In this document: positions 1 through 64,000 of the stretch, one piece after another | How the letters are laid out: each line of letters begins with the position of its first letter | Position numbering within the stretch: the stretch's first letter is position 1 | DNA from: Bilabrum cf. latius | Lineage: Eukaryota | Direction of reading: 5' to 3' | NCBI GenBank assembly: GCA_965178125.1 | Contig: OZ237761.1 | Location: forward strand, 744,001 to 808,000 | DNA: 64,000 bases | Made by a program: the position numbers and the translations under genes | Notes under the pieces: model-generated | What the model saw: only the letters and a program-made list of their open reading frames with translations | Told to the model about the DNA's origin: nothing | The model's database searches: none

Positions 1-2233
1 ACAGCTGCACGACACCGGCCAGGCTCGCGTTCTGACGGACCGCGCTGGCAACAATATCCGCAACCAGATAAAACTCGGCCTGCGCACTGACGTCATCCTC
101 CCGCCTCCCATCCCGCTCCAGCGCGCCCAGCAGGAGAGGCACCACGTCTCCGAGACACTGCCTGTAGAAGCCCGCGAGAGGCTCGAAGGAGGCAGACCTC
201 GCCACCGGACCCATGGCGTGGCGAGTACCGGTCACCAGTGCCGCAGCGTAAGACTCGCCCGTGAAATCCGCGACTGCCAGCAGAGGGGCAACCGTCTCCA
301 TCGCTAGCACTCGCAGGTCTCGGTCCCGCGCCAGCAGAAACCGGCTCACGCTCCGGATGAGGCGGGGACACTGCGCCGCCACCGCCGCGTTCTTGGGTGC
401 CCTGTCGTCGTAGAGCGCCGACCTGAGCGCAGAGAGCATCGCCCTAGACACCACGCCGTGCACCCCGAGGGCGGCACCTGCACCCATCCATGTCCCTGTC
501 GCCATACTCGTCCCCGTCCCTGTCTCTGGTTCTACCGGCAGCTGCGCCGCACCGTCCTGATGAAGTGAAGAGCTTCCATCGTGCAAGCCGGGCTGGGCAG
601 CACAGGAGGCCAAGCCAACGGCACTGAGGAGATCGTGACCCGCCGCAGCTCCCTCTGATGTCAGTTCCGGCCTGGCTGCGTATGCTTCCGTGTGTCCGAG
701 CCACCGCATGCTGTTGGATCCAGGCACGCCCTCGCTGATTGGGTCGTCAAGGCCCAGCACCGGTGCTAGATCTGTGGAACTACCGTCACCGGTTACCCGC
801 CGACGCTTGCGGCCTGCTCCTGGGGACCCAAGCACACCCCCAGCCCCGGCTCGGTCAGACAGGGTCCACCCCGCCCGGGCCCGGTCCACCACTGAGGCGC
901 CCGTCAGGGCCGCCTCACGGTCGGATTCGGAGCCGTCCGGTGCCCCTGCCTCCACCGCCACTCCCAGCAGATCCGCCAGCTCGCCCCAGGGAACAGTGCA
1001 TCCCGCTGCTCGCCGCCGGCGGGTGCTAACCAGCCACGCCGAGCCGGCATGCGCACTGGAGGCCAGGCGACTCTGCAGAGGGGGCAGCTGGCCCAGGGGA
1101 AACGACCCCGAGGTGGGGTCAGCGCGCCGGGGCGGTGGCCCCCCGGTGCCCGTGTCTACCCCTGATGACGGGCGGGCCTTTGACTTGGATCCCAAGACAC
1201 GGCCGTCTCTGCTGCCCGGCTCGGGGGTGGGTGGGCACGCGCCCGCAGCGACAAGGATTGCGGCGCATCTTTCCCTCACAGCATGAGTCAGCGCCTGCTC
1301 GGTCGAGGCCGAGGCCGAGGCCGCTTTGCCTGCGCTTGTGCCGCTCCTTGCGTCGTCGCCCGGCGTGCTGAACGCCGTGCAGTGCAGTGCACCCAAGCGA
1401 ACCACGGACGCCATGACTTCGGCCCGATGCCCTACGTCTCCCTCCTCGCCCGCACTACCTCCCCCGCTGCTCCCTGCCACACCTCCCCCGCTGCTCCCTG
1501 CCACAGCCCACTTCAGGGCCTCCCTGGCCGCCTGAAGCCTCTCTCTCGCTGCCGCGCTCCCTGGCCCCAGCCTCGCGCTTGCCTGCGCCGCGGCCACCAG
1601 CTCCAGGGCCGCCCTGGCGCGCTCCCAGCCCCGCGTCTCCTCCTCGAAGGACGCATCATCGGCCCCTGTGACGGGCACCCAGGCCTCGTCCAGCACCCTG
1701 GCGGCGTGCTCCACCAGGCCGGGCGCCACCGTCAGGTCCGGAGCCACCAGGGCGTGGGCGGCTCGGCCCGCGGCCGCGAGCACGTTAATGCCACGCAGAA
1801 GCTCGCCAGCCACGTCGGAACCGAGCGACAGCTCCACCCGCCGCAGGAGTGTCTGCCTGGCTGCAAGCACGGTCCGGGCCTGAGCCTGGTCGGGCGTCTC
1901 GAGCGCAGCCCGGCTGGGCAACGCCGGCCCAAAAATGACGCGATTTTTATCGCCAGCAGTGCCTTTCGAAGAAATGCCACTGGAAATTGGTGCCAGCTTC
2001 TATTCCAAGCCGGTAAAGATACGTCGGAACGGATTCACTACCCCCGACAGCGGCTTGCTAGCCCCAGCTTCGCACTCCGATGACAGCCGAGCGGCCCGCT
2101 CGGAGCGAAAGCTTCGCAAAACTCTCGGGGGAAGGGTTGGCGCTGCAACGGATCCAATAGGGGCAACGTTTGGTACGCTCTACCCAGATTCTACCGACGC
2201 ATTCGATCCAGTCTGAGGCTGCGCCGATGACAT
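1..2233 (-). CDS. Large helical/ARM-like protein, 3' end outside the window; weak resemblance to LFR/ARID1-ARID2-type SWI/SNF ARM domains
   Basis: ATG at 2233 opens a frame that runs to the window edge, with only two in-frame TAGs (2180-2182, 2000-2002). The segment RRVELSLGSDVAGELLRGINVL loosely resembles the ARID/LFR ARM-domain start. The CDS is solid; the function is tentative. Confidence 0.6.
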
Positions 2234-2467
2234 AGCCTCAATAAATGCCTTGCCCCCATACGTTCGCTCAGATTCCGATCCACCGGTGAATGGGTCTGAA
2301 GATAACATCCTTGCACTTGGTTGGGCTGAAGACAACCTGGGCCACGGCGCCACGAAGTGATTTGAGACGGAGGCGTCGCCGCAGAGGTTGCAACCGGTTG
2401 CATGCAGGCACGTCGAAAAGCAGGCAAAAACGTCGATACTATTGCGTTTCAGGGACCGGAAGTGGGA
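2234..2467. promoter_or_regulatory. Putative bidirectional promoter (ARM-like gene / UFD1)
   Basis: 234 bp between divergent ATGs, lower GC than the flanking gene bodies. Confidence 0.5.
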
Positions 2468-4472
2468 ATGGACTTTTTTAATGCAGTTCTAGGCGGTGGT
2501 GGTATGCCAGCAGGTGGCGGAATGATGCAGCTCGGGTAAGAATTTTGGAACACTGTTTCGTCGTGTTTGGCTGATGTCCATATCACGCCCTATGCTGTAA
2601 TCCCGCTGTTTGTATCTGCAGACCGTGGCAGCGATAGTTAGCGTGCTACTCTATGGCGGTTAGCGGGAAACAGCACCTAGAGTACGGCGACAAGAGTAAG
2701 AAGGCGGCAGACCAGTCTGCACGTGGCAAGCTCGCGATGATCCGCGCAGAAACTTCGCTTGATCCCACTTCTAGTGGTCGCTTTGTATTAAAACTGTATT
2801 GTTCGCAGTTCTCATGCCACCAGATTGCCTTAAGGATCTTGGTAAGCGAATCCCACGTCGCTCTGCTCACTTGGTTGAATGTGACAAATATCGCCCAGTG
2901 ATCCAGTGCTCCTCTCAACCGTCTCGCGCAGCTGCTCGAAATATCCAATTTCCTATGATGTTTCGACTGGAGGGTGGTTCGGCCGGCCGGAGCGTACACG
3001 TGTCTGTTCTTGAATTCTCTGCGGATCCCGGCAAGGTGTTTCTGCCCGCGTGGCTCATGCGTGACATGATTCTGAGAGAGGGCTCCGTGGTGCAACTGAC
3101 CAACACACAGCTACCCAAGTGTACGTACGTGAAGCTGCAGCCGCAAGACCTCGAGTTTTTGGAGCTGTCCGACCCGAAGGCCGTACTCGAGAAGACCCTG
3201 GAGCGCTACAGCTGCTTCACGCTGGGCCAGACCATCTGCTTCCACTACAACGACAGAGAGTACGACCTCAAGGTGCAGGAACTCAAGCCAGCGGGCGCGG
3301 TGTCCATCGTGGAGGTGGACACAGAAGTGGATTTCGCGCCCCCTCCCGGGTACAAGGAGCCAGCCAGACCGGGGGCCCAGGCGGGGGCAGGTGATGGCAA
3401 GGGTGGATTCCAGGGAGCGGGACACGCGGCTGGGGGCGCAGCGGCGGCCAAGTCTCCCATCAGGTCGCACCCGGCGGCGGCTGCGGCTGCCCGCGCGTTG
3501 CGGCTGCAGAAGCGCAGGCGTGAGGAGGGGGAGAGAGGGTTGCGTGCTGAATTCGGTATTAAGGGGTCCAGGCTGCGGGACGGGCGGGAAGTGGAGGGCT
3601 CGACCGCCGCGCAGGAAGCCATACGGGCAGCCAGGGAGAAGGAAGAGGAGGAGAAGCAGCGGCTGGCAAGGGAGCACGTGCCTGCACTCAAGAGGAAGGC
3701 CTAGACTGAGGCCATTGGCAAGAGGGCAGTCTCAGGGGTGTCCCCAGGGTACAAGCTGAAGTCAGGGAAGCGGGTGAGCGGTTCGATAGGCGGTGCCGGT
3801 AACGGTGCATTGAACAGCGGTGCAGACGCGTACCAAGATGGTGGGCGCATGGACGAAGGGGGGGCGGACGGCGACGATGACGATGAGGTAGAGGTAGTGG
3901 GCTTCAGTCCAGGGGCTAGCAGCAGCAGTGGTGCCGGGGGCAAAGGTAGAAAGAAGCGCAAGGGAAAGAAGCTGAGCGTGGGCGGCACGCTGCTTCGCAA
4001 ATCGAACTCGAACTCGGGAGGCGCGGGTGCTGCTGCTTCCGCCGGTGGGGCATCTTCGGGTGCCGCAGGAGGAGGCATCCCGAGGGAGGCCTCGGTGGCC
4101 TCCTCTGCGTCATCAGAGGCCGGTGGTGATGGTGGCGTGGCTGGAGCGGGGGCGGCAAGCGGTTCGCTGGGCGTACCGAAGGTTCATGAACCTTCTGTAG
4201 CGCTGGGCACCTCCCGCGCGGCCCGCAGCGTGGTGGAGCTCGAGGAGGAGGAGGCCGAGTACAACGCATTCAAGGAGGAAGCGAACAAGCTGGCGGGGAG
4301 TACGCCCGGGGGGGCGCAAGCAGGCGGTGCGGGGTTTGGCGCCCCGCAGTCGGCGGGCGCAGGCAGTGGGGGCGGAAAGGCAGACCCCGACCGACCCTCC
4401 AAGCTCGCGCCGGCCAGCCCGTTCCAAGGCCCCTCGAGGTCGGTCGGGCGGGGGAAGAAATCGAGGGGTTGA
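2468..4472 (+). CDS. UFD1: Ubiquitin fusion degradation protein 1 (Cdc48/p97 cofactor), ~571 aa, 4 exons
   Basis: Exons 2468-2535, 2622-2695, 2809-2841 and 2932-4472 give WQR*LACYSMAVSGKQHLEYGDKILMPPDCLKDLAARNIQFPMMFRL...HVSVLEFSADPGKVFLPAWLM...VKLQPQ...DPKAVLE. In-frame TAG at 2635-2637 and 3702-3704. An SHP-box-like PFQGPSRSVG lies after the second TAG. Ends TGA. Confidence 0.95.
2536..2621 (+). other. Spliceosomal intron 1 of UFD1
   Basis: GTAAG...TGCAG, 86 nt; removal joins exon 1 in frame to the conserved UFD1 N-terminus. Confidence 0.85.
2696..2808 (+). other. Spliceosomal intron 2 of UFD1
   Basis: GTAAG...CGCAG, 113 nt; removal restores GDKILMPP. Confidence 0.9.
2842..2931 (+). other. 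Spliceosomal intron 3 of UFD1
   Basis: GTAAG...CGCAG, 90 nt, in frame; removal restores LKDLAARNIQFPMMF. Confidence 0.85.
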
Positions 4473-4655: not shown

Positions 4656-6032
4656 ATGCGCTCCTTGTCATTGATACTAGCATTTATTGTAATGGGCTGC
4701 GCTTCCGCTAGCACATCCATGCTAGCCGATCCGGGACTGAAGGATCCGAGCATGTACATTGCGCCAGTGCATTTCAATCACTCGTTGCTGGGTCCTGTAG
4801 GGGATCTGGAGAACAATCCGAAGCCATTTTGGTATTTGGCACAGTGGAGCAACCCGTCACATCTAAAATCAACGTCTGCACCCGCTGTTGCAGGCATTTG
4901 CGGCAACGCAGGTGCCAGCAGCGGTTCAGAGTGGACCGTAACATCTGCATCTGCGGGGGGAATTGACGATCCCAGCTCGCCAGAAACTGTGTGTCGGCTA
5001 TCTAGTGGTGACTATATTCTGCGGCAGAATGGCTCTTCTTTAGCTTGCGGACCGGAGCTGGATCTTTTTATCTCACCGACGGGCCGCAACTACCCAGGCT
5101 TTCCCCAGGGGCTGCTTGGCCCATCACCGCCGCTCTCCAACCTAACATCCCTGGTATCATCGTTCAAGTTCGGTGTGAACAGCGCTATCACAGGAGAGCG
5201 CTGCGGGACGAAGCCTCAGTGCGGCCCCGGAGGTCACCTGGACTACGGCTATGCTACCCTCGGCGTGATTGCGGGCAACACAGTAGCCAAGCAGACAATT
5301 TTCTACCAGGTGCAGCTGTGGGACTCTAGATAGGGCACGTGCGGCAAGTCCGGCAACCCTTGCATCGATCACCCTCAGAGCTGGTACTTCAAGAAGCAGC
5401 CGTATGGCGCCAACGACCCGATCGTGGCGTTCCCCGGCGAGCAGTGCTTCCGGGTGGGCGAGCCCGCGAGGAGCATTCTGCTGGACGTGCTGCCCAGACT
5501 GCTGTACGCTATCAAGACGGGGCCCACCGCTGCCAGTGCAAGTGCTAGTGGCAGTGCAAGTAGCAGCGGGGCGCACCCTTCAATGGAGAGGCTGGCACAG
5601 ATGGCCGCCAGTGGTGCAGGCGCTTCGAGTGCGGCGCACCCTTCAATGGAGAGGCTGGCACAGATGGCCGCCAGTGGTGCAGGCGCTTCGAGTGCGGCGC
5701 ACCCTTCAATGGAGAGGCTGGCACAGATGGCCGGTGCAGGCGCTTCGAGTGCGGCGCACCCTTCAATGGAGAGGCTGGCACAGATGGCCGGTGCAGGCGC
5801 TTCGAGTGCGGCGCACCCTTCAATGGAGAGGCTGGCACAGATGGCCGCCAGTGGTGCAGGCGCTTCGAGTGCGGCAGGCGGCTGGTGGTCGGCCACCGAA
5901 GGGTCGGACGCCCCCTTTGACCATGACCCGTCGCACTGGAGTGCCACTGGGATGTACCTGGGCATCGGGCTGCAGGGCTCGCAGACCATTGTGGCCACTG
6001 TGGGCGGCATCGACCTGAGGTTCGAGCAGTGA
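4656..6032 (+). CDS. Secreted protein of unknown function (~458 aa) with an internal tandem repeat
   Basis: N-terminal signal peptide MRSLSLILAFIVMGCASA. ORFs 4656-5333 and 5424-6032 share a frame and are separated only by TAG 5331-5333. Cys/Trp-rich. Ends TGA. Confidence 0.8.
5571..5875 (+). repeat. Five near-perfect coding tandem repeats (63, 63, 57, 57, 63 bp) encoding AHPSMERLAQMA(AS)GAGASSA
   Basis: Units start at 5571, 5634, 5697, 5754 and 5811 and differ only by a 6-bp indel. Confidence 0.95.
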
Positions 6033-6256: not shown

Positions 6257-8833
6257 TCACTCCCTTCGCCTGGCTCTGGGTCGAGAAGGGGCCCTCCCCG
6301 TCCTCCCCACGGATCCGCCTCCCTCTTCCTACCCTTGCACCTTCCGGGCGCCCCCCTTGCCCATGCCCTTGCCCCCTGCCCTGCCCCGGTGCACCCTGGG
6401 CCGCCCCTTGGCCAGCCAGTCGGCGTCATAGTCTCTGCTGGGCGAGGGCGGGCGGGGCTCATCCTCGGCCTCCTTCTGCTTGTGGTCTTCCATGCCCGTG
6501 CGGTCCACTTCAACGTCAGCGTCAATGTCTGCATCCACGTCGTCCTCTGGCTCGTCTTCCAACCCACTCGTTGCATCTTCTTCGTCCTCGCCTTCCACTT
6601 TCTTCCTGCCTCCTTTTTCCTCGGAATCATCGCGATGCGGCGGGGACGCAGCGCATGGGCTGAACTTACCCTGCGACTTGAGGACAGGGGCGGGAGACGA
6701 TGGCGGCTCTCGGTCCGTGGGTGGAGGCTCATCATGTTCCTGTCTGTTCGCGCTTGCATCCACAGCTTCCGTGCTGTCACCGTCATTAATGTCTTTTCCA
6801 AGCGCTTGGGGGTCGGTGTCGCTTCCACCAGCCACAAGGATGTCGCGCTCCGCGCCATGGTTAGATGCGGATGCGGAGGCAGAGGCGGAGGAGGGACGCG
6901 GCTAGGACTCGGACTCAGACTCGGACTTAAGGCTTTGGCCATCCGCTTCGTCGGTTCCGGTCGAGTCGCCCCGGCCGGCTGCCGTCACCCGCTTTGGGTC
7001 ATGGCCGCACTCGTCACCATGCAGCGGCGAGAACCCCGCGGATGGAGAGCTGCGCCCGCCCCGCTTCAGGCTGCTCGTTCCGGTGGCACCCAAGCGGAGC
7101 TCTGCGATGCGACGATGTACCGGTGCTGGTGCGGAGGCCTTCAAGTTACGCCCGCGAGATGGAGCCCGTTTCTTGGTGCCGGGCCCTTGGATCGCCAGCT
7201 GGTTGGCAGCGAGCTGGGCATGCCGGTGCTTGAGAGGGCGCATCTGCGAGCCCCCGCCCTCGTGCCCCATGACCCGCTTCGCCATGCGCATGACGGCCCC
7301 TTTCACCTCCTGTAGCTCTCTTTCCACCAGACTCAGCTTGGCCGCGGATTCGCGGGGCCAGTCAATGTACGTGCCGGCGTGCCACCCGAGGATGCAGGCA
7401 GTCCCGAAGAGGAAGAGTTCCCTCACCGCCCACACCCAGGCCCTCAGGCTGCCCCGGCCAGTTGCACCCTCGTCGAACAGCGAGCCGGCGAATAGATCCT
7501 CTGCGGACATTGGGCCGTCCGACCGGTACATGGCGCGGTTCGAGTCATAGGAGGCCTCCGTTGCGTCGTTATTGGGCGTGCTAGATCCAAAGATTACGGC
7601 TTGAACCCGCGCGATGGGTGCCCACGCGAGTGCTATCCCCGCCTCCCAGTGCAGCTGGGGCTGAGGCCAGCTCTGCACGACTGCCCACTCCAGGGCCGCT
7701 GCACTCGTCACAGCGACCATAACGGAGAGGCGGGCGTCTGCCGTGGTCTTGTAGCCCGTCAGCAGGTGCGCCCCGACAGCGGCAGCCCCCCAGAAGAGCC
7801 CCGCCTGCAGCAGATCGAAGTGGCCGACCACGTACTGCTGCGCCCCCACAAGGGCGTGCGAGTACACCTGCAGGATATCGATGCCGTGCTGCACCACGCC
7901 TAGCGAGCCGTGGACGTGCGTGAGGCTAGCGTTGAGCTGCTCGTCCACGGCCCTGAAGCGTCCCTGTGCCTCCTCGAGCCCTGCCGCCAGCTGCCTCGTG
8001 TGCTCCGATGCGCTTCTCTGGTGGGAGAGCAGCTCCACGCTCGCGTCCACCTGTGCGTTCAGCATGCCGTTCATTGCCTTTGATAAGGCGATCTGGGAGA
8101 CGATGCTCCTCGCCATGGCCTCTTGGGTGGCCTGCGCCTCGAGGAAAAAGCAGGCGCTGTCCAGACCAGCAAAGAACTCAGTGTAGGCCGAAAACACGAG
8201 CGGGCTCATGGCGCGGGTGCAAGCCCGGGTGCTAGAGGCGAGCGAGTCCTCTCCTGGGCGAGAAGAAGAAGAAAGTAGCGGCGAGTCATCACCCGTGTTG
8301 CCGTGCTCTCTTGACGCGACGACATCGGAAGATGGTGGCGGCGGCCCCGAAACGCCACCTGCTCGCTCCATTGTATTGGCCGATTCGCTTGCCCGCGTGC
8401 GCAACTCCTCCCGAATTGCAGATCCACCAGGTAAAAAAGGGTCGCATTCGGTCGGTACGTCAGTCTTATGGCGGCCGGCGTTGTGCACGTGACAGATCGC
8501 TAGGCCCGCCGCGATTGCACCACGACGAGCATCACTCATGGTCGCACAGAGCTCCCCGCTTCCTTCCACGAAGCGATTGTAGAGCATTGAGAAGCATCCA
8601 GGACCTCTTCTGTTATCTGATGAGCTTGCTGATCCGAACGTCCAAGCTGAGGCTTGCTTGGCAGCTTGCGGAGCATCCTGCCGAGCCAGTCTCTATAATC
8701 TTTCAAGAGCCCCGCGAGACTGCTGCAACATCTCGTCAAACCTGCTTGTTGTGCCTTGAGAGCCTTGACTTGCATGGCAAATGGACGCCGCAATCGCTGT
8801 CCCGATCAAGACAGATGCTGGGCCGAGGCACAT
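6257..8833 (-). CDS. GEX1: GEX1/KAR5/Brambleberry-family nuclear membrane fusion (karyogamy) protein, ~858 aa
   Basis: Signal peptide MCLGPASVLIGTAIAASICHA. Cys-rich domain GCFSML...LCATMSD...LAICHVHNAGR...C...ACTRAMSPLVFSAYTEFFAGLDSACFFLEAQ, followed by a coiled coil and ~3 hydrophobic segments. Single frame with TAG at 8693, 6902 and 6329. Ends TGA 6257-6259. Confidence 0.8.
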
Positions 8834-9091
8834 TTGATTTGATTGACCGCAAGTATTCTACCCCATTTACGCAGTACAGTCCGACTCTTCGCGGGTATCA
8901 CAGGAGGTGGATGTTACTACAGTACTTATCAGCTTAGATATACTGCTGGATTATAATGATTGGTTCGATGATCTCCGCTGCTCGCCAAGCAGATTCTGGG
9001 CACTTGCTCGCTCAGTACTACAGTGCAGTGCATCTGGATGCATTGCACTGTAGGTCAAGTGAATCCCACGTTCTCCGCAACCATATTCGCC
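8834..9091. promoter_or_regulatory. Putative bidirectional promoter (GEX1 / TCF25)
   Basis: 258 bp between divergent ATGs. Confidence 0.5.
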
Positions 9092-12000: not shown

Positions 12001-13294
12001 GAAGCAGGAGTCGCTTGCCTACGCGTACGAGAAGATGGTGCGTGTGGCAGGACTCCGGCACGCCTCGTTGTTTCGGGAGGCTGTGGCGGCAGTTGTGCTG
12101 CACAGGGCTTGCCGGGCTGCTGCCGCTGCCTGGGAGGCCCTGCAGGTCCTGGAGAGCGAGGGCTCGGGAGTGGATGCCGGGGAGTCGATGGGGCCAGGCG
12201 CCATGCCGCAGGAGGCTCGGGAGGTGCTGTGCGGGCTCGTGTTCGGTGGCGACGAGGAGGCGGCCGCTGCGGCTGCGCTGGCTGGGGCGATTCGAGCAAG
12301 GCTGTACTCAAAGGGTGCCCCCGAGACGGCGGAGAGATGGGACGGGGACAGCAGCCAGAGGCGCCTGCGGGCGATGGGTGTGTTCCCCAGTGAGATGGAG
12401 GCTGCAGAGGCCATGTCAGGCGCCGGGGGTGTGCTAGAGGCTGGTGCGGGCGGTGCGTCAGCGGTGCGTGGGAAGGTCGGGGCTCTAAGGGCGTGCCTCG
12501 CGGCCGAAGAGGCGCTGGATGCAATGGATCGGGATGCGTGGGAGGACCAGCCAGGCGATACGGGGGATGGAGGGAAGAGGCAGAGGTCGAAGAGGGTCCC
12601 GGTGGCCGCGCCGCTTGCGCACTACGCGGGTATCATGCTGTCTGACCTGGTGGATGATGCGACCACAATCGCTAGAGAGGAGCTGGCGGCGGCGCAGGGA
12701 CTGGGGCAGGAGGGTGGCCATGGTGGTGGGGAGCCGATGGCACCGGCGGACGCAGCAGCCGGGATGGGTGGGGACGGCAGGCACGAAGATTCAAGCGACG
12801 AAGATGACGAGGACGAAGACGAGGACGAGGACGGCATCTTGGCGCAGGAGCAGGCGATCGCTGACGATCTGGCCGTGGCGCTGGAGGCTGCCCTGGGCCA
12901 GCGGCGGGCGGGAGAGCCTTTGGCTGGGGCCCGCGGTGCTGGTGCTGGTGCTGGTGTGGCTGCTGGTGCTGGTGCTGGTGCACACGGTGGGGTCATTCAT
13001 GGACTGGACCCAGGCGTGGCAGCGGCTCTTGCGGATCACCCTGAGCTCCTGGAGGAGGCGATGGCAGCGGAGCAAGCAATGGGGCTTCGTGGTGGTGGTG
13101 GCGGTGCCGGGCAAGGGGCTGCGGCTGGGGGGTAGGAGGCGGGCGAAGGCGAGGGCGAGGAACAGTCACTGATGATGGCTCTGCTGAGTCCCCTGCTGCC
13201 TTGGACGAGGACAAACCAGGGCGGTGGAGGAGGAGGCAACCAGAGCTAGGGTGGTGGTGCTGGCGGGGGTGCCGCGCCTGGTGAGGATGGATGA
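9092..13294 (+). CDS. TCF25: TCF25/Rqc1 ribosome quality-control protein, ~1400 aa with low-complexity insertions
   Basis: FAMQHSVPYAMQQRAFEQAV...NPHHIDGALQLAE...RLPFSTLENRAVYTTLFRHM...LLGLSPVRDPM...LDYY. The family-type C-terminal LLSPLLPW is reached only after five TAGs. TAGs at 10019, 11192, 11258, 11675, 13133 and 13247. Ends TGA. Confidence 0.9.
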
Positions 13295-37534: not shown

Positions 37535-37576
<42 letters not shown>

Positions 37577-47700: not shown

Positions 47701-48090
47701 GCCGATCCTACGAGATGCCCTGGCGACATCTGCATGCTATCGTTTCATCCATGTGCGTGCAGCGTCGTGGGGCAAAGCCTCCCCGAGCATCAGCATTGAG
47801 ATCGCGTGCAGCACCCGCTCCATAGCTTCCGCCTGCGACCCAGCATCAGGCGCCAGGCTTCGTCCATACTATCCAGTACTTTGTGCCAATGATCGTAAGT
47901 CTGACGATCCTATGCCTGCAGCAACTTGTGCCTCAGAGCCTCCCAGATCGCGACTATCACTTTGTCTCTGTCGGTCACTAGACTCCGTGGTGTTTCCCGC
48001 AGCTCCAATCACTGATTTCATTTGATTTCCGGTTGTATTACTGATGTTTACTTCATCTTTACTCTCGATATCGAATTTTTGCTCATCCAT
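38790..48090 (-). CDS. Giant multidomain protein (~3100 aa): degenerate alpha/beta-hydrolase fold, ~6 IQ motifs, coiled coil, SAM domain, ankyrin repeats; apparent 1-nt frameshift at the C14 run 46080-46093
   Basis: Hydrolase-like segments VVVLGDMFD...RVLLVSMPG...WTLLGMGAGANVA...LPLLVLQGTENSLL...AGHEV. IQ motifs at ~41800-42310. SAM domain VQRWGAKHVIFWLEAIGYSKYAPNFEEAGIDGVQLL. Ankyrin repeats RTCMHYAA...GADVNARDKWGNTPLHY. 15 in-frame TAGs. Ends TGA. Confidence 0.8.
43147..43276 (-). repeat. Perfect in-frame 63-bp tandem duplication (ALLPPGLEGLSKENSVVARMM x2)
   Basis: Identical units start at 43147 and 43210. Confidence 0.9.
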
Positions 48091-53600: not shown

Positions 53601-56600
53601 CACGCGCATGCACACGTGGGCTACGGGTCCGCGGCGAGCAGTCCGCTTCCGGGCATGTCTATCTCGGCTAGGTCCCCCGCAGCCCCTCCCCTGTCCCCCA
53701 CCCCAGCCCCAACCCCAGCCCCAACCCCAGCCCCAACCCCGCGCATGCGGGACCATGGGTCCTCTCAGGAAGCACTGAGGGGCGCGCTGCAGGGGGCAGC
53801 AGCGAGGGGCCCACGGGGGCGCGTGCGGGCGCGAGCCAGGGAGGCGAGGGGACTGGCGCTGTCGCTGCACCCCGCCCTGGGGCTGGGCGCGATCGCGCAG
53901 GGGCTCGCGTTTCTGGAGGGCTAGAAGGCACTCGGGGATGCGTGTGCGCCCATGGCGGGGTAGCTGGGGGCCTGGCGCGAGGTGGCGGCGCAGATGGCCC
54001 CTCTGGTGCTGCAGCGGGGGGTTGAACTCGGTGCCGCGCACACCAGGCCGAGCGGCGACGGGAGTATAGTGCTTGGGAGAGCGAGCAGCGTCGCATTCGG
54101 GCTGGAGACTTCCGGTGTGGGTGCGTAGCTAGAGCACCACGGGGCTGGGTCGGTACCGGGGCGTGCGAGCCGTGGGACCATGTCGGTGGGCGTGCCCAGT
54201 GGGACTGCATCCCACGGGGATGGACCAGCGGGCCATGGAACCGCAGAGATAGAGAATAATCAGGATGCCCGCCACCGAGGCACAGGCACAGGCACAGGCA
54301 GGGGCTCGAAAAGGCACGGGCGCAAGGGGAGAGAGAGGCGGTTCGATGCCATGGACGGTGGCCTCGGTGGTGAGGACAGGGGCAGCGATCCGGAGTCTAC
54401 CTTTGGGAACAGCATGAGCCTGTCGGGCCTGGGCGCTCTGGGAGCCGCGGAGTATCCAGATCAGGGAGGCAGCGCGGTGGTGGGGGGCAGCAGCAGCGCG
54501 GCGGATGAGTCGTCGATACGATTGTCGTATCGGAGCGGGGACGAAGAAGGGGAGGGGGAGGGGAGTGGGTACAGCGGGGCCAACAGGACACAGATCGGTG
54601 GAACGGGACAGCGCAAGGGGCATGCAGGCAAGGGGCAGGGCAAATCCGGTCAGCCGCACGGGGGCCGTCCCAACTGGCCGGCGAGGCACCTGGACATGAG
54701 CCCACCCGCGTCAGGTCGGTCCAGGACTCTAGGCGGCGGGTCGATCGCGCAGGAGGATAGCAGACCGACGCCCCAGCTGCACCAGCCCCCCTCGCCCATG
54801 CAGCGCTCGCAGACCATGGGGGTGGTGAGCAGCGGGCGGGGGGATCGGTCGCCGGGCGGTCGCAAGGGGAGGAGCGTCAGGTATGCCTCCTCTGTGCTCT
54901 CCCGGTCCCCCACTGCCGGAGTCAAGGGGATGGGCGTGGGGGGTCTGAGCGGGGGCGGGGGTGCGCTGGCGGATGTGCTGGAGGGGGGCGGTTCTCGCCT
55001 GTGGAGGGCGGAGGTGAAGAGGAGGAGGGAATCGGCCCGTCTGACGGCCGCGAGGGTGCTGCTCAGGGGACACGGGCAGGCCACGCGCGCGCACCGCCTG
55101 TCGAGCGGGGCCAGCACGCCCCAGGACGTGGCGCTGCTCACCAGCAAGGAGCTGCCCATGGGCGCGCAGGTGCTGCTCGGTGGCGTGGTGGCCGCCCGCA
55201 GCATCAAGTGCTTGGAGAGGCTGCGGTCGGACAGCCTGGACCGGGAGGCCAGAGACCGCTGGTGGGCCGAGGTGCGGGCGGAGGTGCGGGCGCACGCGCT
55301 GCAGCTGCGGTGCTTCGCCATCGTTGGGTACGAGGAGCGAGCGGTGATCGACGAGGACGTGTGCGTGCTGGCAGCGACTGGCACGGCGGTGCAAGCCCGT
55401 TCCATCAAGAAGGTATTCCAGCTGACAAACAAGGGCAAGGGCCAGGGCCAGAGGTAGAGCTAGTCTATCAGCCGAGGCCCCGTGTCGAGGACCAGATCGG
55501 GCGCTGCCTCTAGAGCCGCCTCGACGCGCGGTGGGTCCATAGCGAGCTCGGGCTCCAAACGAGGGGCCCGTGATGCAGGGCAGGGCGGGGACTAGGACCA
55601 AGCATGGAGCCCGCGCACCCCATACAAGCAAGGAAAGGGGCAGCAGGTCCAGGTCGACAGCAGAGGCAGGACTTCCGGTCTCCCGCCGCGGTCCCCAGCC
55701 CCAGCCCCGGCTGCGGCGCCCCGGTCCCACTCTCCTTCTCTCGCCGGCTCCAACGCCAGCATCGCGCTGAGACGGAGGGAGCGCCCACCCTGCGCCACCG
55801 CGCACGTGCCCTACCTGAGGCGGGGCGGCTGGGGGGCCGCTGCCTTCAACCGCCTGCGGGTGGTCCAGTGCAAGCATTGCGCCTCGGGGTGGGTGCCGGA
55901 GGTCCTGATGGCCACCATGCCCGCCCCCGTGGAGCTCCCAGTGCTCGGCAACCCGGAGCAGATAACCGTGGTGGCTGCCCGGCGGGTGGACCGCACCGGG
56001 GGCGCCGAGGCCAGCTGCGAGCACGTGTCCCGGCACCTCGTCTTCCTCGAGCTAGACGCGCAGAGGCAGCTCCTCACGCAGCTCAGGTGCCTGGGCAGGA
56101 ACGCCGCGTTCGACCTGAGGCACCGCCTGCAGCTCAAGGGGGAGGTCATGGTGCTCGCAGTGACCTGCACTGCAGTGCTGTGCACCGCCATGCCGCTGCC
56201 GCCCACCCCGCTCGTCACCGACACCACGCGGCTGCCGCTGGCCTTGCGCACGCGTGCCGTGGCGCAGGCCGTGCTGGAGCTGGCTGGCCGCAGCCGCGTG
56301 GTCCTGGAGCAGCACGCCCTGCTGACGGCCTGGTGCCGCATCGCCAGACAGGCCAGTGTCGAGTTCGGAGGGGTCCGGCGGCGGGGCCTTGCGCTGGGGT
56401 CCCGGGGGAACGGGACCGTGGGCGGGGGCGGGGGCGGGGACGGGGGACTGATGCCGCTTGAGAAGCTGGCCCAGCTTAGGCTGCTGGCTCTGGCGCTGCA
56501 CGGGGTCAGGTCGGGGCGGCAGGCCAAGAGGGTGCTGCGGGGGCAACCGCTGGAGCTGGTGGAGGAGGCCGTGGAGTGGGCGCGGATGTGGTGGGGCAAG

Positions 56601-59093
56601 TGGGGCGGGTCTGTGCACGTGCCCGCGCGGCTGGGACTCCTCTCTACGGGTGGAGCTGGAAATGGAGTGGGCGCAGCTGGCAGCGGCATGCCAGGAGCGG
56701 GTACGGGGACGGGGGGTGGGGCCGGCAACGCGATCGGGCACAGGGAGTCATCAGGGAGAGGTGCAGTGGCATTCGAGGCTCCCGATGTTCTGCGGGGTAG
56801 CGAGCTTGCGCGGGACGCCGACGCAAAGGAGCTGTGGGAACGGCCGGTCAGAAGGGCAAAGGAGCTGCTGCACGAGCAATAGCAGAAGAGGAGGGAGCGG
56901 CACAGGAGCAGCAGGAAGAGCAGGGACGACCGGCCGGCTCTGACCTCCCTTGCATCGGACCGTGCTCCTTCCCTGTCCTCGTCGTCCTCGAGCGACGGCA
57001 ACGGATCGGGGAACGGATCCTCCTCCTCCTCATCCTCGCACGAAGGTGGGGCCGGCGGTGGCTCGTCCTCTTCCACCTCTGAGGAAGAGGACGGGGCCAT
57101 GGCGGCCGGGGGTCTCGCGCACAGCGGCCAGAAGCACAGGGAACGGCGGGGGGGAAGTGGCCGCAAGCGGTCGGAGGATGTTCCCAAGAGCAGCCGAAGC
57201 GAACCCAGTGTGGGGAGCGGCTCGGGGTCGGCACCCGCGGACGCGGCAGGGACGGCCAGCGTGCCGCCCAGGAACGTCGCAACGACCCCGGGGGGCTCCA
57301 AGCCAGAGTCTCGCGCTGGAGAGTCTTCGAGCACGGATAATTCTGATTCCGGGTCCTCTACCGACTCGGAGGCGGCTGCCACTGCCGAGGAGCGAGCGGC
57401 GGCACGGCAGCGCGTGCTGCAGCAGGCAGCGGCAGCGAGGGCGGCAGCGGCGAGGCAGGCACAGGATGCGGCGGGACACCGACACGCGGAGCTGGATTCC
57501 CTGCGGCTGCAGCTCGCTCGTCACACAGGGGAGGAGGAGGTGCAGGACCGCTTCGATGCCGCGCTGGACGGGCACAGGGGGTATCGGGATGCAGCGACGC
57601 ATTTCGCGGTGGAGGTGGAGGACGAGAAGGACCAGCGGAGCGCACTGTGTCTGCTGCCGAGGCAGGCTCCGCCCGGGATCGTGGTGGTGGGCGGCGACTC
57701 TGTGCCGGGCTGGCTGCACGGCATGCTGGGGCACCAGTCGGCGGTGTTTCTCGAGGACGAGTACGTGAGGCCGCTGAGGACTGCGGGGAAGCTGGCCGCG
57801 CTTAGGGCCAGGGTGGACAAACTGGCGCCCGGGAGCGGGATGTTGCCCTCCGATGCGCGCGCATTGGGCGAGGCAGGAGGTGGGGGTCTGTGGGGCGGGA
57901 TCATGGGGGCGTTCGCGGCGTGTTTCGGCGGGGAAGACGCTGCCTATCCTGACATTGACGTGCTGCAGGGCGAGCGGGACTTGTACCAGGGAGTGCCCTT
58001 GGTGTGGCGGGCCAGCGGGCTGAGCGAGGCTATCGCGGAGGCTCACGGCAGGGCGAGGGCGAGGCTGCTGGGCCAAGCGGCGAAACACGCACCCGCTGCC
58101 CTCCTGCACTATCGCGTGTCCCTCTCGGGCCCGCAGGAGAGCGCCATCCTGGTGCGGGTGCAGGCCGAGCTGGTCAAGCTGAGGGCCTCCCCCACTCTCG
58201 TGCTGCCCCCGCGGTGGGAGCCGTCAATGGGAGGCAGCCCGAGGGGAGGCGATGGGGTCAGCAGCAAGGGGAGTGAAGGCGGGGGTGCAGCGGCGGGCGA
58301 GTAGCAAGAGAATGCAATAACGGAGGGAACAGCTGGAGGAGGGGGAGGGGATGGGTTCGTGGCAGCTCTGGTGAGGGCAGCGGCGATCGAGTCAGAGGGC
58401 GCGCTAGGACCCGTACCAAGCAGGAGTTCCACGCGGCCTGCTGGGCCTGGCCTGCCCCTGCAGGTTGCGCTGGGCCTGCGAGGCGCAGACGCGACTGTCC
58501 TTAGATCCTCCATGGCTCGATTCAAGGAGGTGCTGCATGGCCACTTCGCCCCCATCGTGAGGATGGCCGTGCCCAGGCAGCTCCGGGGCCTGCTCCCTAC
58601 CCGCCGCGGGAAGGGTGTGACGAGTGATCGGGGGACGGACGTTGGGGTCAATGCTCCTGGTAGCGCGCTGGTGGTACCGGTGGGGGGCAGCCCTGCGCTG
58701 TCCCCACTGATGACCCCGTCGGTGGGGGGGGTTGGGCCGGGGGAGTCTGCGGTGGTGGAGGACGTGGCGGTTGCAACCGGGTCCACGTGTCCAGGGCACA
58801 GGGTGCTGTCGTACAGGGGCCACCTGGCCCTGCAGTTCATCCGTGAGAGCGAGAGCCTGGCGGCGGACGGCGGGTTTGACCGCTTCAACGGGAGGCTTCG
58901 GGAGGTGGCCATGATGGTCAGCAGGGCACATGCGAGGGCGCTAGGGGGCAACGGGGTCGTCTGCTGGGAGATGCAGGTGCACTCCTTGGTCGCAAACCGG
59001 CGCAGGGGCAACGCGTACGTGATGTTCACCATCCACGGGGACGTGGTGCTGCTCGAGGCGCAGGAGGAGCAGGACGGCTGGGAGCAGCCGTGA
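50664..59093 (+). CDS. C2CD5: C2 domain-containing protein 5 (C2 + YbjQ-like domains), ~2800 aa
   Basis: MSTVLKVHVVGAKGLPIMDSRTDSTDAYV...GWLPLFDSLRGISG; GFVEELLVDDDPEY...FRASRASNQAR; LGGVVAARSIK...RDRWWAEVRAEVRAHA; CATAHVPY...CKHC...VPEVLM; C-terminal YRGHLALQFIRES...RAHARALGGNGVV. 12 in-frame TAGs. Ends TGA. Confidence 0.9.
51414..51500 (+). repeat. Coding hexanucleotide microsatellite (GGTGCG)~14 encoding (GA)n
   Basis: Perfect tandem array inside C2CD5. Confidence 0.95.
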
Positions 59094-59340: not shown

Positions 59341-60861
59341 ATGCGACAGGCTTCTGTATTGATTGGGCTAGTAGCCGCTGCGGTGACCGCAAAAGAATGC
59401 TCAATTGCTGAGTTTGGTGCAGTTGGAGATAATGTAACAGTAAATACGCAGGCGATCTAGTCCGCTATCGATGACCCCTCTTGCGACACCGTTGTAGTTC
59501 CAAGTTCAGAAGCGTCTCAACATGGGGGTGTATTTCTGTCTGGGGCGCTATGGCTTCGTGCTCAGTCTCATTTGCGCGTACAGCAGGGGGCCGTCTTGCA
59601 AGCGATGGCACCCCAGTTCCAGCCTTCGGCCCGGTTCCCGAACGGATCGTGGTCGCAGTTCCCGCCGCGATACACGCGAACAGCATCGTACGGTATGGTC
59701 CACTCTTCCCTGCTAAATTCTGGTCGCTGCGTACGGATGCGCGACGGCTACGACCGCTGGGCGCAGACGGCCAGGGACGCGTGCGCCGAGTGGGAAAAGG
59801 CGCCCGGGATCAAGATCGACGGCGGTGGGGTGATCGATGGCGGAGGCTGGAACTGGTGGAGCCAGTGCCCTCCCATCCGCGCCCCGCCTGAGTGCGCCCG
59901 CCCGCAGACGCTCGACCTCGCGTTCGCCGACGGGCTGCATGTGACGGGTGTGACGGTGCAGAACTCGCCCTCGTGGACCATCCATGTGCTGGAGAGCTCA
60001 AGCGTGGAGTTCCACAACATCACGGTCCTATCCCCGCCCTGGCCGCACTCGAGGAACACCGACGGGATCGACCTCGACTCAGTGCGCGGCGCCGCGGTGA
60101 CCCGGTCCAGGTTTCGCAACGGGGACGACGGAATCGCGCTGTGGGCTGGGGCGGGGCCGGCCAGCTGGGTGCCATCGCCCCCCCTGCCTGCCCCGGGCCC
60201 CACGCGGGACGTGCTGGTGGAGGACTGCATGTTTGAGAACTCGCATGGCCTAACGGTGACGGAATTCCTGGCAGGTGGGGTCAGCAACGTGACCTTCCGC
60301 AGGATCAAAATGGTGAACCCGCTGGCGGGGCCTCACATCAAGGCGAAGAGAGGGATCGGGGGCGGCGTGCAGGGGGTGCTCTTCGAGGACATCGAGATCC
60401 TCGGGACCCAGCGGCACAGCGAGACCAGGGGGTGGAACGGGAGCGGGTTCGCCCTAGTGATCGACATGTACACGGACTGCAGCGGGGCCCCGGGGGGAGG
60501 GGGGTGCCCTTCTTTGCCTGTGAATGCATCGCTAAGGCCCAAGGTGGAGGGGGTGACTGTGAGGAACGTGACGTGCCGCGCCCCCGGCTGCTGGGGCGCG
60601 GCTCAGCTGCTGGGGCTGCCAGAGAGCCCGATCCGAGGGCTCCGGCTGGATGGGGTGGATCTGAACCTGGGCGACCCGCAGTGTCCAGGCCTGAATGCAG
60701 CCCACGGAGCAGGGCTATAGGATGCTTCCCAATCGGGCTCCAGGTGCTTTTAGTGCGCCTTTTTGCATTCGGTCCAAGTGGGCCCGGGCGGAGCGGTACC
60801 AAGGGCAGGCAGCGCCACAGGATGCCAAGGTATATTTGATGCATGGGTGGCTGCAACATGA
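59341..60861 (+). CDS. Secreted glycoside hydrolase family 28 (polygalacturonase-like), ~506 aa
   Basis: Signal peptide MRQASVLIGLVAAAVTA; SIAEFGAVGDNVTVNTQAI*SAIDD; FLSGALWL; GGGVIDGGGWNWW; NSPSWTIH; NTDGID; GDDGIA; SHG; HIK. TAG at 59458, 60718 and 60751. Ends TGA. Confidence 0.9.
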
Positions 60862-60971: not shown

Positions 60972-62068
60972 TCAGATCTCATCGATGTCAATGTCGTCGA
61001 TTGCATCTCCCTCTGCCTCAAGCATCTCATCTACAGACCTCACTTCCTCCCTGGATCCCGACAGCGCCTCGCGGATCCCCGCCCTGTCCACCTCGGCGAC
61101 GGAGGAGCGGCTCGTGCTGCGGGCCACGCGTGTGCGGAGCGGGCTGTCTTCCACCGGCACCATCCGCAGGCGCCAAAACGTCATGGTCTGCTCCTCAATG
61201 AACTGGCTCTGCCCGATGGTCATCTGCACGTGAGCCGGAAACACGATGAGCTGGCCCTCGAGCGGCCGGAAGCTCAGCCGGTTGTCGTACGGGGGTGCCG
61301 GGCCGCGGGGGTCCGAGAGCACGATGCTGCCGCTCCCGAGGGGTGCGTTGGTAACATAAATTCCGTTCATTGCGCCTTTGTAATCTGTTGTTGGCATGTT
61401 CAGGCTGCTGTTCACGTGAATCTAGGCCCAAGCCTGAATTGCCCCGACTTGCTCTGTCACCTCTGGCTCGTACAGATCCAGCCCAACCTCTTGCAGCAGC
61501 TCGTGACAAGTAGCGTAAAAGAAAGATATCAGTCGACGGACGGGTGGCTTAGCCTGAGAACAGTAAAGGAGGTGTGTCACACAAGAGAGACTCTAGGCGT
61601 TCAGGTTGTCTGCCGCAGTCATTCGGTTTATGGTCGCGTATCAGGATAGTGAGGGGCATAGCTCACCACCAGAGTTTGGTTCTATAGCTACCACGATGCA
61701 AAAGCCTACTCAAATGCGTACTGTGTTGTCGCCATCTGCTTCAGCTGTTCCGTGGCCTCATCCTCGTCCTCCAGGTAGTCTTGCATCAGCGAAGATGCCA
61801 GTCGCCTCAATCTCTGCGGTATGCAATGCCAAATGTCCGCAACACAGCTCGTGATAAGTAGTACCTTCAGCTTTGCGATACAGTCGCTAGTATAGCTCAC
61901 TCTTGCGGTTGTCTTTGGGAGGGCCTGCGTCCGATTCGCGATGCCAACCACGTTGCCGAATGCGATAAACACGTCCGCATCCGTGCCCTTGATACCAAAG
62001 GCCTCTGGCGCAGCTAGAGCAGAATAAACAAGTACCACAGCACAAGTCAACGCGCGCGCAACGGACAT
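60972..62068 (-). CDS. Secreted/ER 2OG-Fe(II) oxygenase-like protein (TIGR02466-type fold, degenerate), ~298 aa, introns 61814-61900 and 61554-61666
   Basis: Signal peptide MSVARALTCAVVLVYSALA; IQAWA*IHVNSS...MNGIYV...GSGSIVLSDPRG...FRPLEGQLIVFPAHV. Both introns GTGAG...CAG. TAG at 61706, 61688, 61682 and 61422. Ends IDEI-TGA. Confidence 0.7.
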
Positions 62069-62207: not shown

Positions 62208-63920
62208 ATGTCCAAGGTTTCAGATGCCTCAGCATCACTCTCATCGCGTGGGTCAAAGGCAATGAAACCGGCCCTCTCCTATTTTAAGTAGTTCTTGGAG
62301 GCAACCATGGCCGGTCTTCACTCTGGCGACTCGGATGCTGCCTCAAGCGATGGTTATGTGGTGCTTTCTGTAGCCGAAAATAAGATGAGTTTTAGCCCGC
62401 TTCGGGCGAAGCTGGAAGATCACGGTGCTGTCCCCGAATCGGCAGCTCAATACACCAACATGCGGGGTGTGGATCGCTTCCGCGACGCAGTAGCTGCAAC
62501 CATGGAGCGCACATGCTTGAAAGGGGCTACAGTAGACCCAAATTGCCTGTGTGTGCAGGCTGGTTGCGGTGCCCTCGTGAGCACGTTGATCACTTTGCTT
62601 GCAGAGGATGGAGACGCGGTGATCACTCCGAGCCCCGCGTACCCTGCCTTCGATAACGACGTCTCAGTGCTGGCGGGGGCGCACCTCGAGCACGCCCCCA
62701 TGGTGGTGCCAGGGGTATGGACTCCCAGCCCCTCGTCCTCCCCCGCGGAGCAGTCCGAGGGCAACCCGGCCGGGGACTCTGTCAGTGACTGGAGCAGCCT
62801 GCTCTCCGTCTCGGCGCTGGAGGCAGCGGCCAGGAGGGCGGAGGGCGCGGGGCACAGGCCCAGGGTGCTTCTGCTAGCGCATCCAAACAACCCCATGGGG
62901 CTGATCACACCCCCCGAGCAGGTGCTCGCGGCCATTCGGTGGGCCAGGGGCAGGGCCATGCACGTCATTAGCGACGAGATATACGCCAACTCGGTCCACA
63001 CCCCGGGGATAGCTGGAGTGGGTGCTAGTGGAGACACAGGTGATAAAAAGGGTGCAGGGGCAGGGGCCGCCGCTGGACCCAAGAGCGGCGCTCCCGTGCC
63101 CGTGGGTGCAGCCTCCTTCACGTCAGCGCTGCAGATGCTGCACGACGAGGCCGAGGCCGGGGCTGCTGGTGCTGCGGGTAGTGAGGAGGGGGAGGCGGCA
63201 AGCGGGGCGCTGGGCCCCCTTGGTCTGGACGTGCACGTGCTGTGGGGTTTCAGCAAGGATTTCGCGCTGTCAGGGTACAGGGTGGGCGCCCTGCTGACGC
63301 ACAACCCCGCGCTGCTGCAGGCCCTGGACAACGTGTCCTACTTTGCTGCGGTCTCGAACGATACGCAGCACCGGCTGGCTGCTTGTCTGGAGGACCCTGC
63401 CTTCACTGATGGGTACTTGGATGGGTGTAGGCGAGACGTCCGCGGGAACTGCGAGGCGCTGTCTACCGAGCTGCAGGCCGCAGGGATCCCTTTCGTGGCG
63501 CCTCGGGCGGGGCTGTTCGCTGTGGTCGACCTGAGGGCCCTACTGCCTCTGCCCGCGGCTGCAGGTGCAGCTGCGGGGGATGGGGGGGTGTAGGAGGAGA
63601 AGGAGGGGGGGCCTGCAGGCGGGTCCTCTGCCGATGGCAGTGCCAGTGGAACAGGCAGCAGCGGTAGCAGTGGGCTGCTGCCAGCTGCAGCCTACCGCGG
63701 GGAGCGCATGCTGCAGGACCGGGTGTTCTCCGACTGCAAGGTGGTGCTCACACCGGGAGAAGCCATGCATGCGCCTGTGCCCGGCCTGTTCCGGGCTTGC
63801 TTCGCCTGGATGCCGCCTGCGAGCATCCGGGCAGGTGTGCGTCGGCTGGGAGAGCTCAAGAAAGTGATCTAGGAAGAAAAGGCAGCCGGCACGTGGGTGG
63901 TGCCAGAAGCTGCTGATTGA
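62208..63920 (+). CDS. ACCS: ACC-synthase-like PLP-dependent aminotransferase class I/II, ~570 aa
   Basis: LSSRG...GYVVLSVAEN, PSPAYPAF, HPNNPMG, HVISDEIYA, PLP-lysine motif WGFSKDFALSGYRVG, and KVVLTPG...PGLFRACFA located after TAG 63591. TAG at 62289, 63591 and 63870. Ends TGA. Confidence 0.88.
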
Positions 63921-64000
63921 CCGGTCGGACCAGTAGGTATGGTGATTTGTTACGAGCAGACAAGCTTCCTGCTATTTTGGCTGATTTTTCTGACGGCCTG

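Follow-up and report, generated by a model that had tools for sequence, protein, structure and literature searches.

Nuclear genetic codes that separate UAG from UAA are few: the part of the account by McGowan et al. (2024) available to us names a fornicate, a rhizarian, a genus of green algae and some ciliates (PMC11687900). The fornicate, Iotanema spirale, reads UAG as glutamine and keeps UAA and UGA as stops; the available part of that report also gives a T32G change in the GTS motif of its eRF1, and the argument of Panek et al. (2017) that a tRNA with a CUA anticodon is the sole way to read UAG but not UAA (PMC5304391). The same UAG-to-Gln reassignment is described, again in the part at hand, for two phyllopharyngean ciliate lineages and Protocruzia tuzeti, with several independent origins, while UAG alone has taken other meanings in the rhizarian exLh (leucine) and in Scotinosphaera (serine) (PMC11687900). 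Reassignment of both UAR codons to glutamine is listed there for many ciliates, ulvophycean green algae, hexamitid diplomonads, Streblomastix and Amoeboaphelidium (PMC11687900).

Here we analyse a 64-kb stretch of DNA with 66% GC, called the window throughout, which carries 18 genes on both strands (Table 1). We find that in this nuclear DNA UAG encodes glutamine throughout genes, and that only UGA, the usual terminator, and UAA act as stops, as in NCBI translation table 15; we place the probability of this reading at about 0.92. The gene for the IQ-motif, SAM and ankyrin protein becomes a single 3142-codon frame with 15 TAGs if one C is omitted from the run at ~46080-46092, the shorter run being the version in the contig of DNA run X1. 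In a protein atlas the acetyltransferase-like protein matched clusters from fungi and bacteria, which gave the family only and no lead to a lineage; a search with the C2CD5-like protein gave just three matches among 8000 scored candidates, and the spliced gene found no match in Pfam or, with its final exon as query, in the PDB (E up to 1).

Table 1. Genes of the window, with in-frame TAG codons and terminators.
Gene	Coordinates	Strand	TAG	Terminator	Remarks
Uncharacterised	2..2581	-	3 after first ATG		No Pfam match; off left edge
UFD1 homologue	2814..4472	+	1 (3702-3704)	TGA	Pfam UFD1_N1/N2
Hydrophobic N-terminal stretch and 5 tandem repeats	4656..6032	+	1	TGA	
Uncharacterised	6257..8866	-	4	TGA	
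TCF25/Rqc1-like	9038..13294	+	6	TGA	Pfam Tcf25 3.8e-36
Uncharacterised	13412..16909	-	8 after first ATG	TGA	
Homoserine O-acetyltransferase-like alpha/beta hydrolase	17167..18741	-	0	TAA	Pfam Abhydrolase_1 and atlas clusters; C-terminus AKL
Inositol polyphosphate 5-phosphatase-like	18934..27369	-	11	TGA	2811 codons, one frame
BPI/LBP/CETP-like	28259..29958	-	1-2	TGA	Pfam LBP_BPI_CETP and _C; two overlapping frames, intron unmapped
Two-RRM protein, Gly/Arg-rich tail	30479..31834	+	0	TAA	Pfam RRM_1 1.6e-31
WD40 protein (MABP1/WDR62-like)	31878..38606	+	4	TGA	
IQ-motif/SAM/ankyrin protein	38790..48090	-			Two frames in window; TAG is the Q of one IQ motif
tRNA 2'-phosphotransferase (Tpt1/KptA)	48245..49195	+	2 (48488-48490, 48629-48631)	TAA	Pfam PTS_2-RNA 7e-46
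ACBP and enoyl-CoA isomerase (ECI2-like)	49283..50518	-	49580-49582	TGA	98 conserved residues after the TAG
C2CD5-like protein	50664..59093	+	12	TGA	C2 and YbjQ-like domains
GH28 polygalacturonase-like	59341..60861	+	3 after ATG	TGA	
Spliced gene, family unassigned	60972..62068	-	4	TGA	Introns 61553-61665, 61814-61900 (GT..AG)
Class I/II aminotransferase (ACC-synthase-like)	62208..63920	+	3 after ATG	TGA	

Counted from the first ATG to the terminator, the 18 genes, in 22 frame pieces with 19,739 codons altogether, contain 80 in-frame TAGs and not a single in-frame TAA or TGA; one of the TAGs falls where the two BPI frames overlap and could belong to an intron. The two off-frames of the same DNA hold 99 TAG, 37.5 TAA and 277 TGA per frame; finding none in frame by chance has a Poisson probability of 5e-17 in the case of TAA and of 5e-121 in that of TGA. 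TAG occurs at least once in 16 of the 18 genes, the acetyltransferase-like and RRM genes being the exceptions; these two and Tpt1 end in TAA, the other 14 complete genes end in TGA, and TAG terminates none of the 17, a small sample for ruling out occasional UAG stops. This recount reproduces what a sequence-only reading of the window had claimed, namely TAGs in 16 genes, TGA (14) or TAA (3) at all 17 complete ends and neither TAA nor TGA inside any frame, and its estimate of about 77 TAGs falls within three of ours. TAG accounts for 80 of 864 glutamine codons (9%) and is scarcer in frame than position-specific base composition predicts (80 observed against 222), a shortfall that we count against our reading.

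The length of open reading frames is not usable as evidence here, because taking TGA as sense yields even more long frames in GC-rich DNA: 49 frames reach at least 500 codons with TGA as sense, 29 with TAG as sense and 11 under the standard code. Those TGA-sense frames that we inspected lie off-phase or antisense over TAG-sense genes and carry up to 26 TGAs each; one example has a GC content of 0.83/0.73/0.54 by codon position. Pfam domains fall in the TAG-sense frames, which run on past TAGs into such domains, as in ECI2. Translation with table 15 yields the same reading of every gene in the window, as had been proposed, with the table serving as a bookkeeping device that is silent on origin or mechanism.

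Contigs from three studies carry identical TAG letters. Only two letter differences were found in 20 kb, neither on a TAG site. Eighteen of the 31 in-frame TAG sites between positions 44001 and 64000 lie on the listed pieces of sequencing runs X5-X7, with no other letters at any of them, and all four TAGs of the spliced gene are retained in X5 and X6 contigs that lack both GT..AG introns (113 and 87 nt), through both of which DNA run X1 reads. The RNA-like contig covering Tpt1 stops 41 nt past its TAA. We treat X5-X7 as cDNA on the strength of the two intron-less joints: the automatic label is a guess, X5 is marked 'probably DNA', and no listed run containing window sequence is recorded as RNA. 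Retention of TAG in mRNA, a check proposed together with the original claim, is thus borne out on pieces whose RNA nature we infer.

The residue is indicated by relatives, chief among them L001, a syntenic metagenome contig (57% GC) whose ECI2 is 75% identical to that of the window, whose C2CD5 orthologue has 11 in-frame TAGs in 1210 codons, and whose two complete genes (ECI2 and Tpt1) both end in TGA, neither in TAG. We scored 13 well-aligned sites at which either genome has TAG: the partner codon specifies glutamine at eight (CAG at six, CAA at two), alanine, lysine, glycine, valine and glutamate at one each, and leucine or serine at none. When these alignments also supply the substitution frequencies, the likelihood of glutamine exceeds that of the next-best residue, glutamate, by 19.1 natural-log units. 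A closer relative has Q at both of two further C2CD5 TAG sites, and its ECI2 product terminates precisely at the shared TAG. Within the window, TAG supplies the Q of 'KIqSCYRGYVGR', among six IQ-like repeats, and preserves the repeat period in QPQPQTqTQT, QGQRqSqS and qGQWQGQGQG. By contrast, in L003, a contig at greater distance, TAG terminates the ECI2 orthologue at the same C-terminus, and a frame of 1529 codons has no TAG at all. Counts, RNA-like contigs, relative and motif or repeat context thus uphold UAG as glutamine with UAA and UGA as stops. If UAG were sense but stood for another residue, glutamate, its meaning in Blastocrithidia and one oligohymenophorean ciliate, would be the most plausible candidate, and relatives do show it in three comparisons: at two aminotransferase TAG sites in a 93% identical relative, and at Tpt1 site 48629-48631, which is GAG in L001. 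The GH28 TAG at 59458-59460 likewise faces E in two plant chains, and Q in chain 2uve_A, and many TAGs lie within Glu-rich stretches such as 'VIqEEK'. We nevertheless give glutamate very little credence, since only one of the 13 scored sites faces it, the likelihoods, the two additional C2CD5 sites, the IQ motif and the Q-periodic repeats all suit glutamine, and a Gln-to-Glu replacement is a one-base conservative change of which occasional cases are expected.

It is also very unlikely that UAG is ambiguous, being mainly sense but a context-dependent stop for some genes, in the manner of the context-dependent stop codons of Condylostoma and karyorelict ciliates. Just 17 terminators could be examined, and some TAGs stand 8-25 codons before the annotated end (BPI, TCF25, GH28), where stop and sense are indistinguishable; yet none of those 17 genes terminates at TAG, both complete L001 genes end in TGA, and, in the relative with glutamate at the last aminotransferase TAG, the tail that follows is conserved as far as an equivalent C-terminus. 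That the TAGs might go untranslated, through assembly error, pseudogene decay, missed introns or RNA editing, is already contradicted and retains a negligible probability. The one real doubt about the assembly is the C run near 46080, which differs in length from the X1 contig, whereas decay or errors would yield TAA and TGA as well, the same TAG letters recur across three studies, four TAGs persist in spliced contigs, and L001 carries its own in-frame TAGs at different glutamine sites.

Glutamine decoding of UAG would call for a dedicated tRNA-Gln with anticodon CUA, pairing with UAG and not with UAA and charged by glutaminyl-tRNA synthetase, together with an eRF1 whose N-domain would have lost affinity for UAG while keeping recognition of UAA and UGA. 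ARAGORN and Rfam found no tRNA gene in the window, and none was found in L001, L003 or L007; nor does the window contain an eRF1 gene. Historically, UAG stops may have become scarce in a GC-rich genome that ended its genes mostly with UGA; a copy of tRNA-Gln(CUG) could then have acquired the anticodon CUA, and C-to-T changes at CAG would have spread TAG across glutamine sites.

As for the lineage, a starred clade (100/98) of the ECI2 tree, which has no ciliate or fornicate rows, unites the window and L001 with Cafeteria, unnamed rows and a Symbiodinium-assembly protein and keeps them separate from animals. The neighbours of the window are thus stramenopile and dinoflagellate-like rows; one gene cannot place the organism. 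No ciliate appears among the named best matches of two protein searches. L003, considered as the nearest standard-code kin, was rejected, since in the ECI2 tree its partner is the Symbiodinium-assembly protein; we use it as an outgroup contrast only. Mitochondrial-type and peroxisomal-type targeting signals had been proposed, of which we see the Arg-rich N-terminus of the ECI2-like protein (the presequence of a beta-oxidation enzyme) and the AKL ending of the acetyltransferase-like protein, which we take to be PTS1-type, and no others. The suggestion of an independent, undescribed origin can be followed only in part: the window looks like neither a fornicate nor a typical ciliate, given its 66% GC, its 18 genes on both strands within 64 kb, its GT..AG introns of 87 and 113 nt and a beta-oxidation enzyme with a presequence, and its ECI2 lies beside that of Cafeteria. 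In the literature searched, which left subscription journals and supplements outside, no UAG-only glutamine code is reported in a GC-rich eukaryote that is neither ciliate nor metamonad. We lean, by a little, towards an independent and undescribed origin of UAG-only-to-Gln in an aerobic protist clade, free-living or host-associated, outside ciliates and metamonads and with UGA as the dominant stop. Three or more diverged genotypes would belong to such a clade, among them the window, L001 and a relative of 93-98% identity.

Every additional independent case is a test of why UAG and UAA mostly go together, and of how eRF1 is able to give up UAG and no other stop. An independent origin, if true, would make this a first GC-rich example, with genome as well as RNA data, in which the order of UAG-stop loss, tRNA-Gln(CUA) gain and eRF1 change might be reconstructed by setting members of the clade against their nearest standard-code kin. 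Since the case brings long contigs of genomic DNA, RNA-like data and two or more diverged relatives with the trait, it allows direct study of how the tRNA and eRF1 changed and how TAG spread over CAG sites. There is also a consequence for annotation, in that standard-code gene callers truncate these genes wherever a TAG occurs. Two database proteins, P0004 and P0142, end at in-frame TAG positions and P0123 begins just past one, so most public proteins of this organism are probably fragments.

UAG as glutamine with UAA and UGA as stops is a rare but already known kind of code, here in a lineage that looks unlike those in which it has been described. Table 15, labelled 'Blepharisma nuclei; some phages', reads every gene here identically. 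Set against a typical ciliate genome, the window does not look ciliate-like, with 66% GC and an ordinary multi-gene chromosome stretch encoding very long low-complexity proteins. The phyllopharyngeans and Protocruzia, as far as the available part of their description goes, share the reassignment and likewise keep UAA as a stop (PMC11687900). Iotanema has the same reassignment too, but in the available part of its report UAA is the primary terminator, whereas here it is UGA (14 of 17) (PMC5304391); that organism is described as an anaerobic endobiotic metamonad represented by a transcriptome, in contrast to a 66% GC genome encoding a beta-oxidation enzyme with a presequence. UAR-to-Gln codes resemble the present one in that glutamine has captured a stop, but they reassign UAA as well, whereas the window has no in-frame TAA and three genes that end in TAA. 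In exLh and Scotinosphaera, UAG is uncoupled from UAA just as it is here, with leucine or serine as its meaning, where the partner codons of our TAG sites specify glutamine.

The 64-kb window has a G+C content of 66% and carries eukaryotic nuclear genes on both strands, separated by short spacers. Translated with TAG as sense, their frames match Pfam families for UFD1, TCF25, an inositol-phosphatase domain, BPI/LBP, two RRMs with a Gly/Arg tail, MABP1/WDR62-type WD40 propellers, IQ, SAM and ankyrin motifs, Tpt1, an ACBP–enoyl-CoA isomerase fusion (ECI2-like), a C2CD5-like protein, a GH28 glycosidase and a class I/II aminotransferase; many of the proteins contain long Gly/Ala/Ser-rich inserts. 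A search for tRNA and other Rfam families in the window found none. Individual features are collected in the table.

Coordinates and observations for features of the window and of the related metagenome contig L001 (lower-case q, TAG-encoded position)
Feature	Coordinates (strand)	Observation
Protein with hydrophobic N-terminal stretch	4656-6032 (+)	Five tandem 'AAHPSMERLAQMA...GAGASS' units of 19-21 residues each
5-phosphatase gene	18934-27369 (-)	Catalytic domain seemingly split: Pfam match limited to profile positions 167-287, at residues 1735-1916; N-terminal 'TATWNVGEGG' (about residue 120) resembles the domain start; about 1450 low-complexity codons between the two parts, in-frame open, 5 TAGs, 0 TGA/TAA
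Overlapping frames	38793-46193 and 45265-48219 (-)	Omitting one C of the C run gives a single 3142-codon frame with 15 TAGs
13-C run	46070-46092	One base shorter in the contig of DNA run X1; probably a homopolymer length error or polymorphism
Tpt1/ECI2-like convergent pair	49195-49286	Very short 3' ends: RNA-like contigs end at 49236 (Tpt1 side) and start at 49249-49252 (ECI2-like side), gap 13-16 nt; ends lie 41 and about 35 nt past the respective stop codons
ECI2-like gene	49283-50518 (-)	
C2CD5-like (Gly-Ala)n tract	51400-51600	Length-variable coding microsatellite; 22 residues shorter in protein P0142 of a closer relative; DNA contigs break here
IQ/SAM protein		Exact 21-residue duplication, 'LLPPGLEGLSKENSVVARMMA' x2
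L001	1-3630 (-)	Double TAG, 'FPqqWLYGF', opposite CAG CAG in the window

Under the standard code the longest open frame in the window spans 1294 codons and the next fewer than 700; with TAG as sense, six exceed 1000 codons, the maximum being 2835. Frame length is weak evidence alone, because in this GC-rich DNA reading TGA as sense opens still more long frames; those inspected proved, from G+C per codon position, to lie off-phase or antisense over the same genes, with up to 26 TGAs each. The decisive count was made on domain-carrying frames, from first ATG to terminator, in 18 genes (19,739 codons), which hold 80 in-frame TAGs and neither TAA nor TGA, against 99 TAG, 37.5 TAA and 277 TGA per frame in the two off-frames of the same DNA. 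TAGs occur in 16 of the 18 genes and make up 80 of 864 Gln codons; 17 complete genes end in TGA (14) or TAA (3) and none in TAG, and one further gene runs off the window. The sequence-only reading, which had counted 16 of 18 genes with TAG, about 77 TAGs and the same 14 and 3 ends, and had seen no in-frame TAA or TGA, is thereby reproduced. We show that UAG is decoded as sense in essentially all genes, and that in a sample of 17 genes UAA and UGA function as terminators.

Public runs from three studies contain the stretch, and were mapped over window positions 44001-64000. Here the DNA run X1 covers the interval with zero letter differences and one base fewer at 46080, and the RNA-like runs X5, X6 and X7 show two single-letter differences only, neither at a TAG. 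X5 and X6 each yield one contig joining 61552 to 61666 and 61813 to 61901; on the plus strand the segments left out run CT..AC, which a minus-strand gene reads as GT..AG, and X1 continues through both. Joints at such ends, together with unspliced X1, indicate that the runs contain spliced cDNA; it is from these joints that X5-X7 are taken as RNA, the run classifier having offered the guess 'RNA?', with 'probably DNA' for X5. The sequence-only reading had named retention of TAG in mRNA, as opposed to splicing or editing out, as a check, and the RNA-like runs agree with it: among the pieces listed, at least 18 of the 31 in-frame TAG sites in the interval lie unchanged on X5-X7 pieces, four of them in the spliced contig. 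At these sites, TAG is thus neither removed with an intron, nor edited, nor an error of assembly.

Scanning metagenome contigs with the ECI2-like protein recovered L001 (6510 nt, 57% G+C), which has the same three genes in the same arrangement as the window. Its ECI2 is 75% identical to the window's and does not differ from database protein P0003, with a branch length of zero in the tree. The C2CD5 orthologue of L001 contains 11 in-frame TAGs in 1210 codons and its open frame holding ECI2 contains one, so the trait is common to a diverged relative; its ECI2 and Tpt1 both terminate with TGA. TAG density in C2CD5 is about twofold higher in this lower-GC contig than in the window (12 in 2809 codons). 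By contrast, the ECI2 of the more distant metagenome contig L003 (1-10630, 53% G+C), which groups with a Symbiodinium-assembly protein in the ECI2 tree, terminates with TAG at the homologous C terminus, and frames of 629 and 1529 codons, free of internal TAG, both end in TAG. Three TAG-terminated frames indicate that TAG keeps its standard meaning there, and the lack of internal TAGs that the method does not report sense TAGs everywhere.

The sense meaning of UAG is most probably Gln, as first proposed. In three aligned window/L001 orthologue pairs, 13 sites had TAG in one genome and 20 neighbours at least 50% identical; the partner codon was Gln at eight (CAG 6, CAA 2) and Ala, Lys, Gly, Val or Glu at one each. 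With substitution frequencies derived from the same alignments (13 sites, three genes, one relative), Gln led the runner-up, Glu, by 19.1 natural-log units. TAG also stands for Q in 'KIqSCYRGYVGR', within six IQ-like repeats, and other TAGs preserve a repeat period (QPQPQTqTQT, QGQRqSqS, qGQWQGQGQG), contexts that agree with Gln. The GH28 TAG lies opposite Q in chain 2uve_A but opposite E in a pair of plant chains; of the two Tpt1 TAGs, one aligns with a Q in the yeast enzyme and the other falls in a variable column.

Logan-derived proteins document a second relative, closer than L001. Both window TAG sites within the clearly aligned part of P0142 are Q in that protein, which ends where the window has CAG; P0004 stops exactly at the ECI2 TAG, and the source contigs of both are 6399 nt. 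The aminotransferase P0123 (93% identity) begins immediately after one TAG and has Glu opposite the remaining two, an alignment that is the main result against Gln; Gln-to-Glu is a conservative, one-base change. All three are fragments in public collections, where gene calling under the standard code has truncated this clade's proteins at TAG.

Genes with 11-15 TAGs each cannot be served by near-cognate readthrough that lacks its own tRNA. Panek et al. 2017 (PMC5304391) argue that a tRNA with anticodon CUA is the sole way to read UAG but not UAA, and report T32G in the GTS motif of Iotanema eRF1. As CUA alone separates the two codons, a dedicated tRNA-Gln(CUA) would be expected to read UAG, together with an eRF1 weakened for UAG. 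Codon capture is a plausible history: UAG stops could have grown rare before a tRNA-Gln copy gained CUA, since UGA is the preferred stop here.

The ECI2 best named matches are Cafeteria (59%) and a Symbiodinium sp. KB8 protein (58%); those of the aminotransferase are green algae and diatoms (28-36%). In a 24-row ECI2 tree, a starred clade unites the window with L001 and P0003; the starred group around it also takes in Cafeteria, the Symbiodinium protein, L002/L003 and several unnamed rows, and the animal rows lie apart. A single gene is too little to place the organism. The reading of the window genes equals NCBI table 15, as already noted from sequence; the code itself is thus known, and the novelty would be its carrier. 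Our literature search, which covered papers outside subscription journals and supplementary files, found no report of a UAG-only Gln code in any GC-rich eukaryote that is neither ciliate nor metamonad; given this scope and run records from 2023-2025 (X1-X7: 2025), a description of the carrier may already be published or in preparation. McGowan et al. 2024 (PMC11687900) list UAG-only reassignment to Gln in Iotanema spirale, Protocruzia tuzeti and two phyllopharyngean ciliate lineages, to Leu in a rhizarian and ciliates, and to Ser in Scotinosphaera. The sequence-only impression that this genome looks like neither an AT-rich ciliate nor a fornicate holds as far as window features go, although the single-gene tree cannot place the organism: GC content, a multi-gene chromosome stretch, 87- and 113-nt introns, the Arg-rich presequence of ECI2 and an acetyltransferase-like AKL C terminus all misfit a fornicate or typical ciliate. 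The primary stop of Iotanema is UAA (PMC5304391), that of the window UGA (14 of 17).
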